NCBI RefSeq assembly: GCF_050320075.1 | Contig: NZ_CP190018.1 | Source of the DNA: Escherichia coli | GTDB taxonomy: Bacteria > Pseudomonadota > Gammaproteobacteria > Enterobacterales > Enterobacteriaceae | Reading direction: 5' to 3' (one strand) | DNA: 64,000 nt | Program-made: the position numbers and the translations under genes | Part shown: positions 13,611-32,307 of the stretch, piece by piece | Position numbering within the stretch: position 1 is the first letter of the stretch | Layout: each line of letters begins with the position of its first letter | Notes under the pieces: generated by a model | Database searches by the model: none | Seen by the model: the letters and a program-made list of their open reading frames with translations, nothing else | What the model was told of the DNA's origin: nothing

Positions 13611-15611
13611 TCATCCTTGTTGCTGAAGCATGGGGAATAATTGTTCGCAAAGTAAAACACCGTTATTCATTGCTTCTACCCGTGCCTCGCTTTCTGTATT
13701 ACGAAATTGTGCCAACACATGTGCCAGCCGATAAAAAACCACCGCGGTGAGGTCATTCGCCAGCAACTCTGCCTGACCAATAGCACTCTGTTCCTGATAG
13801 CGCCAGCCGTTATGGAGCAGTTGAATAAGTAACGCCTGGCAGCGCATCAGCAACTGATGAGCGGTAGACGGCACAGGCAAAACGCTGGCAGAAGGTAGCG
13901 GTGCCACAGGCGCAGTTTCTGCGTCCAGCGCCCAGGCGCGGGTTTTGGTCATCATTACCCGTGGTTCCAGTGTCAATTGCCCCTCTACAAAGCTGACAAA
14001 GCCAGAAACCAGACTCACGGGGTCGTCTGTTTGTTGCAAAAGCGCCGCCATGCGTTCAACGGCAAAAGGAGAACAGGCAGATGCCGGAAGGGATAACGTC
14101 AGCAGATTATCTTCACCTTCGCCGCTGATTACCTGCGCGTCCAGCGTCTGGCGGCTGCTATCCCAACCGAGTGAAATACACTCAGCGACTGGCAGAATAA
14201 ATAAGTTATCCACCTGATTAAGAGGCCGTATGCAGGCGGGGGGACGCTGGCGTAAATATTCACGCAAAGCCACAATGCCCGGCTGGCGCAACGGCGCACT
14301 CAACATTTGCCAGGCGTCTGGCGACAGTGGAACAACACTACTCAAGCGGTTGCGGGTAGCTAACAGCAGCTCGCCATCGGCACTGCGTTTTGCTGCTTGT
14401 GAAACAATTTGCCCACCAGCCAGTGCGCCAGCCTGAAAACTAAACAGCCGACGCGTCGCTGCCGGTGAGTTTTCCTGTTCGCTTCTCGGCCAACTACGCG
14501 AAAGATGCAAAATACTGCCGGTGTCGGGATCGGTAAACCAGATGCGTAAACCATACTGCTCAATATCCTGCCAGCAACGCATACCTAAAGACACCAGCCG
14601 CAGATGATCAAGCTTTGCTTCTCCGGCAATGCCAGCGCCAACGACCGTGCGCCACGGCATGGGAGGAACTTCACCAACACTGTCGCGCCGGGCCATCTCT
14701 TGTGCACAATTTAATCGATTGTTTAATGCCGCAAGCTGACGTAAGCATTCTCCGGCATGATAGTGGCTGGCGCGGGCGTGGAAGGCATCAACGCTGGCGC
14801 GCAGTTGCCGTAGCGATTCACTCACCCAGCGCCAGTTGCAGCGTTCCGCCGCTTGCTGCGCGCGGCTGAAAGCAGCCTCGTAATGAATAAGCGGCTGGCT
14901 GATGCCGCCAAGCCATAACGCCTGGCTTAATTGCTGAACATATTGACGACACGCGTCCCCCTCATCGTTGGCAAACGGATCGTCAGATGATGTGACGTGT
15001 TCGCTGCGCATCTGCCAGATTAAATGAGTAAATTCCGCTTGCTGCGCTTTGGCCTGGACAAAGGCCTGTACTGCCAGTACGACATGTTCGCAAAGTGTTC
15101 CTTCAATACAATCACAGCGAGCGAAACGAATGCTGCTGCGGGAATAAAAACGTACATCGCTCATCGGTAAGCGGGCAGAGGGAATTTCGCTCGGCGTACA
15201 GAACAACTCAATGGTGATGCCTTTAGCGACCAGTGCCTGTGCGCGTTTGCGGGTGGCATCGGGCAGGGTAGCCAGTTCTTCCAGCCAGATTGCCGGATCC
15301 CACTCTTCTTCTTTTTCCGTAGTCTGGGTGGTGGCGCAAAGTCGCTGATAACTTAAAACCAGCATCACGCGATGGCGGCACATGCCGCTGGCCCCGCAGC
15401 TGCACTGAGCCTCTTTCAGTGCCTGACCGTTCGCCAGCTGGGTACGGACACCGTCACTGAAGGTGGCGATTAAAGCGCCGTTCTCATGGCTGATCTCCGG
15501 GACGTTGCCATTTTCCAGTTCCTTAAGACTGCGCTTAACAAAACCGGCATTGCTTAACGCTGTCAGGGCCTGCGGTGTCAGTTCTAATAATTCCGGACGT
15601 AGTGAATTCAT
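13611..15611 (-). CDS. yehQ: SWIM zinc-finger protein YehQ
   Basis: ORF 13611..15635. Start placed at MNSLRPELL, which forms an ATGA overlap with the yehP stop. Two CxC..CxH SWIM-like motifs (CSCGASGMCRH and CDCIEGTLCEH). Confidence 0.8.
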   Translation of the reverse strand: MNSLRPELLELTPQALTALSNAGFVKRSLKELENGNVPEISHENGALIATFSDGVRTQLANGQALKEAQCSCGASGMCRHRVMLVLSYQRLCATTQTTEKEEEWDPAIWLEELATLPDATRKRAQALVAKGITIELFCTPSEIPSARLPMSDVRFYSRSSIRFARCDCIEGTLCEHVVLAVQAFVQAKAQQAEFTHLIWQMRSEHVTSSDDPFANDEGDACRQYVQQLSQALWLGGISQPLIHYEAAFSRAQQAAERCNWRWVSESLRQLRASVDAFHARASHYHAGECLRQLAALNNRLNCAQEMARRDSVGEVPPMPWRTVVGAGIAGEAKLDHLRLVSLGMRCWQDIEQYGLRIWFTDPDTGSILHLSRSWPRSEQENSPAATRRLFSFQAGALAGGQIVSQAAKRSADGELLLATRNRLSSVVPLSPDAWQMLSAPLRQPGIVALREYLRQRPPACIRPLNQVDNLFILPVAECISLGWDSSRQTLDAQVISGEGEDNLLTLSLPASACSPFAVERMAALLQQTDDPVSLVSGFVSFVEGQLTLEPRVMMTKTRAWALDAETAPVAPLPSASVLPVPSTAHQLLMRCQALLIQLLHNGWRYQEQSAIGQAELLANDLTAVVFYRLAHVLAQFRNTESEARVEAMNNGVLLCEQLFPMLQQQG

Positions 15612-31500: not shown

Positions 31501-32307
31501 AGCAGCGAGAACTTTATCTACACAGCGTTGCCACTCATCTTCTGAAGCGAGTGAAAGATGATGACATAGACGTTGATGCCAGTTCGGTAGTGATTCTGCT
31601 TTGAGATCAGGGGGAATAATGGTGGTGACGTCGGCTTTTACTGGTTTATATTTGAGTTGAAGAGCGAGAAGGGCGATTTCAACGGTAGTTTCCAGACCAC
31701 AGCGAATGACTAAGTCATCGACCAGTTCATCTGTAGAGTAAGAGTTCCATAAATTCCAGAGCAATGCCGCATCAGATTGTATACTTCCTGTTTGTTGATT
31801 ATTCAGAATTCGCCTTTGTAACTCGGCAAACGCCAGCTGCCAGTTTTCAGGATAAGAGCGGTAATTATTGTCGGGGTCATATGCCCTGGTGTTATTCGCG
31901 ATGCGCTTCCATATTTGGCCATCTTTGTACAGATAATTGATCTCTCTGGGGCGAGAGCGATGAGGAAAAGCAAATCGATTAATATCGCCAGTTACCGGAA
32001 TGACTGCATCATCAGCCACCCATGGGCGTTTGTTTTTACTCTCAGGGGAGGTTTCAACTTCAGGAGTGGCTTTGGTGATGGGGGGGATATGCACGTTTGC
32101 TAAAGCATTTTCCACATAGCCTTTTTTCGTTTTCTCTGCGATCAGCTTAAGCTCCGCTTTTGCCGCTGCCGCAGCATCCGCAAAACTTTTTACCTGGTTT
32201 TGCCCTTTGGTGCCAACTTTTCCCCAACAGATATGCAACTCGTTTCCCTGTTGCTCCACCGCCCAGAATTTATGTGATTTTTCGTCCTGAAAGATAAAGT
32301 GCCTCAT
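28510..32307 (-). CDS. Second WGR-domain / DUF4132 paralog (MolR-like), 1265 aa
   Basis: N-terminus MRHFIFQDEKSHKFWAVEQQGNELHICWGKVGT. Same architecture as molR, diverged in the middle. 12-nt gap to molR. I do not recall a second copy in K-12. Confidence 0.8.
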   Translation of the reverse strand: MRHFIFQDEKSHKFWAVEQQGNELHICWGKVGTKGQNQVKSFADAAAAAKAELKLIAEKTKKGYVENALANVHIPPITKATPEVETSPESKNKRPWVADDAVIPVTGDINRFAFPHRSRPREINYLYKDGQIWKRIANNTRAYDPDNNYRSYPENWQLAFAELQRRILNNQQTGSIQSDAALLWNLWNSYSTDELVDDLVIRCGLETTVEIALLALQLKYKPVKADVTTIIPPDLKAESLPNWHQRLCHHLSLASEDEWQRCVDKVLAAIPSLSPARQPFAALLLPERPDIANAMALRYADQNVPAMTWLRLVVTDDAALTTAEKYDFPPLYHDFRAYLAMLLANNGVRGVSRILLEFTEEHSDNPTYLFERISETEDLVKWLWKTNHPDAIQILILGVIGKKKHLEYLSKACQKHPAAALAAYATLLAIHEDAQWRKALVKLITATPDLVTDVIPWVNAKAAGILSECRTQLVAEECEYATADMLPELFVAPPWVINKKTNVIPVFDLPVLPIPAVTDITPGITELISHTDISRFSEIAQYQSSQQTLFTDLPLIEKESWETSFIPFTPEQQILWQLGFNEWLHCEDDLHEKKYIPQSAVDALLRFDFPALKAEFAKYHNNANKSWNLSALCYLPGQQAISFLNQIIIEERYSGEKEILAVFGSTAIPAFMTCLQRDHQRLWIFTLFIGASELALPMAQRLQKKMAYKDAINWLANNPRHAAAGLLPLALGKPCQNREYARQAFRLLVKLNQRETIEEIGRRYNQPDVLAALATLFDSDPLEEYPAKIAPLPGFYQFTLWRRPRLKSNNLPLPDDAMRHLGTMLSFPRDITSYAGLATIKETFTHESLADFGWDLYTAWTEAGAPAKENWAFTSLGILGNDDTARKLTPLIRAWPGESQHKRAVYGLDVLADIGSDVALMLLNGIARKIKFKALQEHAREKINIVAENRGLTMAELEDRLAPDLGLDNSGSLILDFGPRQFTVGFDETLKPVVHDANGKVLKDLPKPNQSDDQTLATDSVNLFKQLKKDVHAIASQQIDRLEQDMCQRRRWTAEQFRLFLVEHPLVRHLTRRVLWGVYTEENTLIACFRVAEDSTYSDAQDELFTLPAGNIGIPHVLEISPESATAFGQIYADYEKLPPFRQLDRGYYHLTDNERDTHELIRWQGRLCQAGRIVGLERRGWQRLEESGSVYAMRKSTPYGALELETEHFSLIYGETGYSDLLPVESVKITSPGERYSTQPSLTFSALDAITASELINDIESLFD

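Follow-up and report, generated by a model that had tools for sequence, protein, structure and literature searches.

The window analysed here, the whole 64,000-nt stretch of an Escherichia coli chromosome (contig NZ_CP190018.1), carries the segment from btsSR to metG in reverse orientation and with it the "yeh" block between metG and yehR, which a first-pass annotation made from the sequence alone had singled out as one uncharacterised multi-gene system. The block encodes five protein families, namely giant DUF4132 proteins with or without a WGR domain, a MoxR-family AAA+ ATPase (YehL), a DUF5682 protein (YehM), a von Willebrand factor A (vWA) protein (YehP) and a SWIM zinc-finger protein (YehQ). 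These families recur together in several phyla, with DNA-damage-type promoter elements upstream in Escherichia, Klebsiella and Actinobacteria, and we tentatively interpret them as a damage-inducible remodelling machine. The features that concern this system are, from metG onwards:

32317-32332, minus strand: LexA (SOS) box CTGGATAAAATTACAG, 10 nt 5' of the first WGR-DUF4132 start codon (motif match)
28510-32307, minus strand: paralog A, WGR, HEAT-like solenoid and DUF4132, 1265 aa (open reading frame (ORF), Pfam)
24703-28497, minus strand: paralog B, WGR, solenoid and DUF4132, 1264 aa, orthologue of the K-12 molR/yehF-yehH pseudogene (ORF, Pfam, AlphaFold2 (AF2) model)
21061-24693, minus strand: yehI, DUF4132 paralog without WGR, 1210 aa (ORF, Pfam)
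19027-20104, minus strand: yehL pseudogene, MoxR-family AAA+ ATPase (AAA_5, YehL subfamily; comparison with K-12)
16737-19016, minus strand: yehM pseudogene, DUF5682 protein (amber codon at 18345-18347)
15608-16744, minus strand: yehP, CoxE-type vWA protein with intact metal ion-dependent adhesion site (MIDAS; DQSGSM...GGGT...SDF) (Pfam, motif)
13611-15611, minus strand: yehQ, two SWIM zinc fingers, 666 aa (Pfam, orthologue alignment)

The genes claimed to be co-directional were all found on the minus strand, the three tandem giant paralogs have lengths (1265, 1264 and 1210 aa) that agree with the 1210-1265 aa proposed, and profile searches recovered each of the domains read from the letters alone (WGR, DUF4132, MoxR AAA+, vWA and SWIM). 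For yehQ, a start at 15611 is more likely than one at 15635. Most gene junctions are as tight as had been described (gaps of 12, 9 and 10 nt, overlaps of 8 and 4 nt), but a 60-nt gap ahead of yehK and a 575-nt spacer between yehK and yehL, which holds an opposite-strand toxin–antitoxin (TA) module and promoters of its own, split the block, so that it is not a single tight unit over its full length. The two parts also differ in composition, with a G+C content of 54-56% in yehLMPQ against 45-52% in the giant paralogs (14000-20000 compared with 21000-32300) and of 44% in the spacer region between yehK and yehL, and by this contrast the two halves may differ in history. Strain M217 and several further strains match 13000-21100 at 100% identity. 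Among 5426 complete E. coli genomes, 5424 gave a match to this yehR–yehK part, and its gene context is constant in those that are annotated.

A scan with the YehM alignment, using one genome per species, yielded at least 544 relatives, from which the best 80 loci and one Serratia locus (81 in total) were analysed by iterated profile searches over all ORFs. The YehL and YehM families were present at all 81 loci, YehP at 79, YehQ at 77 and the DUF4132 body at 75 (135 ORFs), while WGR was found at 54. The order [DUF4132 ×1-3]-YehL-YehM-YehP-YehQ on one strand is kept in nearly all of the 81 loci, whose hosts include Gammaproteobacteria, Betaproteobacteria, Myxococcota, many Actinobacteria and an acidobacterial metagenome-assembled genome (Acidobacteriota); the Klebsiella locus is syntenic with that of E. 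coli (metG ... yehR, yehS, btsRS). No sixth conserved gene was detected around the 81 loci, where further synteny exists at the level of the genus alone. Several lineages have multiplied their copies of the giant protein, which bears out the paralog diversification noted earlier. In Variovorax, an additional ORF of 145 aa that has no Pfam match lies between the WGR-DUF4132 and AAA+ genes (L084:8387-8824).

Judged by this gene content and order, the five families form one system that travels and persists as a unit across phyla, as the first-pass annotation had supposed. The contrary view, that unrelated or decaying genes are merely adjacent in E. coli, could point to the several members that are pseudogenes here and in other strains and to yehK and zorO/orzO, which are truly unrelated add-ons (see below). 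We nevertheless consider it very improbable, since the five families occur in the same order at 75-81 of 81 loci, in at least five phyla and in differing genomic contexts, the catalytic motifs are strongly conserved and fusion proteins unite two of the families, while protein identities of 35-48% exclude recent transfers of a single element.

The giant proteins combine a WGR domain in paralogs A and B (Pfam, E 1e-17), as predicted for two of the three, with DUF4132 in all three (E 3e-51). Identity among the three paralogs is 47% and 34%, and it is distributed unevenly: WGR is 77% identical and the C-terminal third 60-75%, and the middle just 20-40%. Paralog B as modelled with AF2 (pLDDT 85) consists of a WGR β-sheet, a disordered linker of about 40 residues, a long body of helical repeats and a C-terminal α/β region. 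In a fold search with this model the WGR part matched 2ra8 and the WGR domain of PARP3, and the body matched HEAT/ARM solenoids alone; the DUF4132 domain gave no enzyme-fold match beyond generic helical-repeat similarity. The giant proteins thus resemble PARP1-3 in the sequence and fold of WGR, but they lack an ADP-ribosyl transferase domain and the WGR is here tethered through the disordered linker to the HEAT-like solenoid, with DNA binding being putative. Two WGR copies exist in 763 of 5426 E. coli genomes, paralog A being the variably present copy, and the single copy of K-12 and of SSGw1 is orthologous to paralog B and not to A. The SSGw1 allele of paralog B (L088:12501-16289) is mostly 94-100% identical to 24703-28497 except for a block of about 300 nt that is 48% identical; the gene is thus a mosaic, and recombination or gene conversion may have shaped it.

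YehL, whose name designates one of seven MoxR subfamilies (PMC3893208), is an AAA_5 protein in its intact K-12 form (E 1.9e-33), and gave only a weak partial match to the bpMoxR model of Pfam (E 0.0024). Its Walker A, Walker B and arginine-rich (ATANTRDRG..KRRF) motifs are at least 90% conserved among 63 orthologues, and the Walker A sequence GEPGTAKS noticed earlier is indeed present in the N-terminal fragment left in the window. YehP consists of an N-terminal region followed by VWA_CoxE (E 5e-71) and no further domain; the DQSGSM motif by which it had been recognised as a vWA/MIDAS protein is there, and the MIDAS residues DQSGSM, GGGT and SDF are at least 90% conserved in 48 orthologues. YehQ gives weak Pfam scores for its two SWIM motifs (E 1e-3 and 0.21), but the residues C70, C72, C78 and H80 of the first are invariant in 28 orthologues, in line with the double SWIM finger originally described.

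YehM matches DUF5682 along its full length (Pfam), a family to which about 2,250 clusters at 50% identity can be related (E ≤ 1e-3) and whose name, 'DUF5682', occurs in no paper of the searchable literature. In the predicted model its N-domain adopts a hydrolase-like α/β fold of the TIKI/TraB/ChaN/EreA type, and the invariant residues G8-x-R10-H11, E35, D101 and C198-G-G-x-H202 come after β-strands. TIKI, TraB, ChaN and EreA, together with HopBA1 and RRSP, are grouped in one fold superfamily, and its catalytic GxxH…E…GxxH motifs presumably lie at comparable places. YehM may therefore be a hydrolase, as far as a model can suggest, and the TIKI/TraB/ChaN/EreA-like fold of its N-domain appears to be new to the searchable literature. 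It differs from TIKI, TraB, ChaN, EreA, HopBA1 and RRSP proteins in that the N-domain is fused to about 500 residues of helical repeats. Searches of the Protein Data Bank with the sequences and profiles of YehM and YehQ returned chance matches alone, NCBIfam gave no match for the YehM N-domains of eight taxa, and on the proteins of the block it gave just a WGR-like N-terminal match and weak AAA/vWA matches. In three distant cluster representatives (P0228, P0264 and P0168; 1122-1180 aa) DUF5682 is fused to a vWA part, and the C-terminus aligns with full-length YehP at 54-55% identity; one of the three is possibly a frameshift artefact. Such natural fusions with a CoxE-type vWA suggest that YehM and YehP work together as a unit.

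The nearest characterised relatives of the ATPase core are the MoxR AAA+/vWA pairs RavA–ViaA, CoxD–CoxE, NorQ–NorD and CbbQ–CbbO, with which YehL and YehP share a MoxR AAA_5 ATPase and an adjoining vWA protein with MIDAS. By analogy, the locus could encode a maturation or cofactor-insertion chaperone, in which the AAA+/vWA pair would load a metal or cofactor and the giant protein would be the substrate-carrying subunit. The CoxE-type family of YehP fits this, as do the old label of molR as 'molybdate metabolism regulator', the likeness of an AAA+, vWA and ~1250-aa subunit trio to class I chelatases, the similarity of the YehM N-domain to the heme binder ChaN and the membership of YehL in the MoxR family, characterised members of which serve complex maturation (PMC3893208). 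We regard it as improbable all the same: no client enzyme gene is conserved beside the cluster, the neighbourhoods vary by genus, and neither a BchH/CobN-like large subunit nor a client operon, as known from class I chelatase and CoxDE systems, was found at yeh loci. The giant protein is a HEAT-like solenoid and not of the CobN/BchH fold, WGR and SWIM modules under LexA or PafBC control (see below) would be unexpected for cofactor insertion, and the molR label is attached to a K-12 pseudogene. The yeh system further departs from the MoxR/vWA chaperone pairs by its obligatory DUF5682, SWIM and WGR/DUF4132 partners, which have no counterpart in the characterised pairs, and by the DNA-damage promoters upstream of the cluster.

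These promoter elements are of two kinds. In the window, a strong terminator-like hairpin follows metG (32415-32438), and the first giant gene therefore has its own promoter. The element CTGGATAAAATTACAG ahead of this gene agrees with the SOS-box pattern (CTG-N10-CAG with an AT-rich centre), the surrounding 20-mer AACTGGATAAAATTACAGGG is identical in six of six E. coli loci, irrespective of which type of paralog, A or B, comes first, and Klebsiella grimontii has a related box, CTGGATAAAAACACAG, at the same place. This is consistent with a published list of genes under LexA control, in which molR appears with a known SOS box (PMC6590174); the molR promoter has also been reported to be activated by BglJ–RcsB (PMC3950696). 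We scanned all 81 loci for LexA boxes (CTGT-N8-ACAG) and Cheo boxes and found none that is conserved outside Escherichia and Klebsiella, so that a universal SOS link was rejected.

In Actinobacteria a different damage element takes this place, just ahead of the DUF4132 genes. The PafBC motif has the consensus tGTCgg(N10)tA(N3)T (PMC8635444, PMC6789036), and we looked for it in windows from -250 to +200 around the cluster gene starts of 37 actinobacterial loci, the windows being extended to +200 because the ORFs were called mechanically and their starts are over-extended in high-GC DNA. The published consensus was matched in the windows of 19 of the 37 loci, at 69 times its density in the rest of the loci; among 102 control gene starts taken from these loci, one had a match. 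The strict form occurs six times in 2×1.37 Mb, all six on the cluster strand by a cluster gene start, and when a single mismatch is tolerated 10 of 12 matches fall in the windows, which cover 2.6% of the sequence. Judging by the searchable literature, this motif at the actinobacterial cluster is new. In Lentzea (L049, L052, L054, L055 and L068, about 4980-5400) the PafBC-type motif GTCAGACCCCCTGAGTAACGT stands ahead of the last tandem WGR-DUF4132 paralog and not of the first, and the paralogs may hence differ in expression. In Deinococcus radiodurans, one WGR protein and one DUF4132 protein are reported to be strongly DdrO-controlled (PMC8533742). LexA, PafBC and DdrO, three damage regulators that are not homologous, thus converge on the WGR and DUF4132 modules.

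The explanation that we favour, at a little less than an even chance, is a DNA-damage-inducible AAA+/vWA remodelling machine with the WGR-solenoid proteins as sensors or clients and YehM as the likely hydrolytic output. DNA damage would induce the giant proteins, whose WGR heads would bind broken or otherwise abnormal nucleic acid like the WGR domains of PARP1-3, while their conserved C-terminal third would dock on the MIDAS of YehP. The YehL ring would then spend ATP to remodel the assembly, YehM would provide a protease- or esterase-like hydrolytic output, and the divergent middle of the paralogs might decide which partner or lesion is recognised. A more far-reaching form of this proposal is a hitherto unrecognised, phylum-spanning damage-response machine that was recruited independently to the LexA and PafBC regulons, and with its WGR/DUF4132 modules to that of DdrO, and in which PARP-like WGR break sensors are remodelled by the AAA+/vWA motor and a TIKI-like hydrolase acts on damaged chromatin, e.g., on protein–DNA adducts or stalled complexes; we consider this possible, if on balance doubtful.

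In the lineage of the window itself the machine cannot work, since a frameshift in yehL and a truncation of yehM inactivate the ATPase operon. Compared with K-12, yehL has suffered an 11-bp deletion (junction 19749|19750) that shifts the frame, and in yehM codon 224 has changed from TCG to TAG (18345-18347). Both genes are marked as pseudogenes in the NCBI PGAP annotation of the identical M217 sequence. Both lesions had been overlooked by the first-pass annotation; the 759-aa YehM that it listed does not exist here. The exact amber allele is found in 214 of 5426 complete E. coli genomes (about 4%) and the deletion junction in about 215 (414 gapped matches subtracted from 629 full-length ones), and these similar counts indicate that both mark one clonal lineage. 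We therefore rejected the idea that the two lesions are widespread, as they are confined to a single lineage of about 215 genomes.

Other lineages carry lesions of their own. The sole WGR copy of K-12 is a pseudogene, O157:H7 has a different stop in yehM (codon 510) and two broken WGR copies, and the WGR copy of O26 has an internal stop. Lineages of Shigella sonnei have yehM, yehL and zorO deleted (PMC12795559), and in a sublineage of ST131 a resistance transposon (blaCTX-M-15) lies in the region (PMC9334617). K-12 YehQ is annotated with 614 aa compared with 666 aa here, with small indels near nt 768-771 and an earlier end (L002:17101-18945), so that in K-12 yehQ may be truncated besides the WGR pseudogene.

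Several observations weigh against a damage-response machine. The independent decay of core genes in K-12, O157:H7, O26 and the lineage of the window disfavours an important repair role in E. coli, and genes that can be dispensed with in this way fit a role in conflict or in a particular niche better than one at the centre of repair. A LexA-type box was not found in Serratia, Erwinia or Betaproteobacteria, and damage control is therefore not universal, while SOS control is common for prophage-linked and conflict genes too. H-NS binds upstream of yehL, and both yehL and yehM are up in hns/stpA mutants (PMC3686432); yehLMPQ and the giant genes may thus be separately controlled and not co-induced in E. 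coli. Finally, the assignment of YehM as a hydrolase rests on its fold, as Pfam and NCBIfam show no sequence relation to the superfamily, and ChaN itself is a heme binder and not an enzyme.

Some of these points would be accommodated by an anti-phage or conflict system, the signature of which the first-pass annotation had seen in this gene set. The giant paralogs would then be diversifying sensors of invaders and the MoxR–vWA pair would license YehM as the effector, resulting in abortive infection or containment. An architecture of several components around an NTPase and a vWA protein is compatible with this, and so are the variation in giant copy number (1-3 in E. coli, with two WGR copies in the 763 genomes mentioned above, and also across genera), the conserved WGR and C-terminal third flanking a middle of low identity, the mosaic alleles, the repeated independent gene inactivation, H-NS binding upstream of yehL and the G+C contrast between yehLMPQ and the paralogs. 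The distribution is moreover patchy, with no other enterobacterial genus standing between Escherichia (92-96% identity) and Klebsiella (70%) among the matches listed, and many matches stem from filamentous Actinobacteria and Myxococcota, which is the phyletic bias of the vWA–MoxR conflict systems (PMC7159879).

However, none of the 10 protein pieces matched a family of PADLOC-DB v2 (the 2023 version) at E ≤ 0.01, and the five neighbourhoods that were inspected (E. coli, Klebsiella, Serratia, Variovorax and Iodobacter) consist of housekeeping genes; neither defence genes nor mobile genes were seen there. The near-universal yehR–yehK part in E. coli and the syntenic Klebsiella locus likewise count against this reading. 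YehM homologues were present in just 39 of 72,556 plasmid records, several of these chromosome-sized or megaplasmids, and among 50,697 phage records in one doubtful contig, a 14-kb metagenomic 'Bacteriophage sp.' entry with a YehM-like stretch that is 27% identical (MT835988.1, 11208-12770).

The published vWA–MoxR ternary conflict systems (PMC7159879) too have a MoxR–vWA core with large extra components, are frequent in Actinobacteria and Myxococcota, and are proposed to follow the same logic, in which the vWA protein captures a partner and the AAA+ protein remodels it. But the third components that define them (VMAP, inactive STAND, FtsH or β-propeller proteins) were absent when the partners were searched with Pfam, their place being taken by DUF5682, SWIM and WGR plus DUF4132 proteins, and the effector domains that they carry fused to the vWA protein or the third component have no equivalent here: none is C-terminal on YehP and none is on the giant protein, nor were effector-associated domains found. 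The paper describing them (Kaur et al. eLife 2020) makes no mention of SWIM, WGR, DUF4132 or YehL, and a MoxR–vWA system with this set of partners is described in no searchable paper. We therefore regard a defence function as rather unlikely, though a serious rival, and the LexA box and PafBC motif point to a DNA-damage response over phage defence, the two not being mutually exclusive. In our ranking the damage-inducible machine comes first, followed by defence or conflict, the cofactor chaperone and the absence of any system, some probability being reserved for functions that nobody has thought of so far.

Between the two parts of the block lie the following further features:

20680-21000, minus strand: yehK, small protein, 106 aa (ORF)
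20537-20626, plus strand: zorO, type I toxin ORF, 29 aa, MDTLTQKLTVLIAVLELLVALLRLIDLLK (ORF)
20216-20291, minus strand: orzO antitoxin small RNA (sRNA; Rfam RF02083)

The embedded TA module reported at first is real, as an OrzO RNA (RF02083, 101 bits versus a gathering score of 60) and a ZorO ORF are both present, the latter with the known length of 29 aa (PMC6669753), and divergent promoter-like sites lie between orzO and zorO (20305-20355). It is, however, the known type I module zorO–orzO (PMC3919570), listed as adjoining yehL and yehM in S. sonnei (PMC12795559), and not a part of the system: we rejected it as a member since it is a lineage-specific insertion and the Klebsiella locus is without it. 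The spacer between yehK and yehL measures 575 bp here and 306 bp in K-12 (269 bp shorter). With respect to E. coli O157:H7 the same sRNA and ORF parts are found, but enterohaemorrhagic E. coli (EHEC) has the duplicated zorO-orzO/zorP-orzP and the window a single copy. In O26 RM10386 (L090:7240-8480) the spacer extends over 1240 bp, possibly with two zor/orz copies as in EHEC, and an IS66 element cuts yehR in this strain. YehK was rejected as a system member as well, being present at two of 81 loci, both of Escherichia; the gene is frameshifted in two of six sampled E. coli genomes. Farther out in the window, beyond apbC, the segment 36000-38000 has a low G+C content (37-40%); this is the direction in which related genomes carry the yehABCDE fimbrial operon.

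In E. coli, molR has counted as an SOS gene since 2000 without a function having been assigned to it, and yehI and yehLMPQ are likewise without one in the searchable literature. The K-12 pseudogene also explains why work on that strain has been uninformative, as K-12 has no other WGR copy. Clinical lineages have lost or disrupted the system time and again, in ST131 through a blaCTX-M-15 transposon. That Actinobacteria have the system behind an unrelated damage promoter of their own makes these orphan genes a concrete candidate, open to experiment, for a new pathway of damage response or of conflict triggered by damage.

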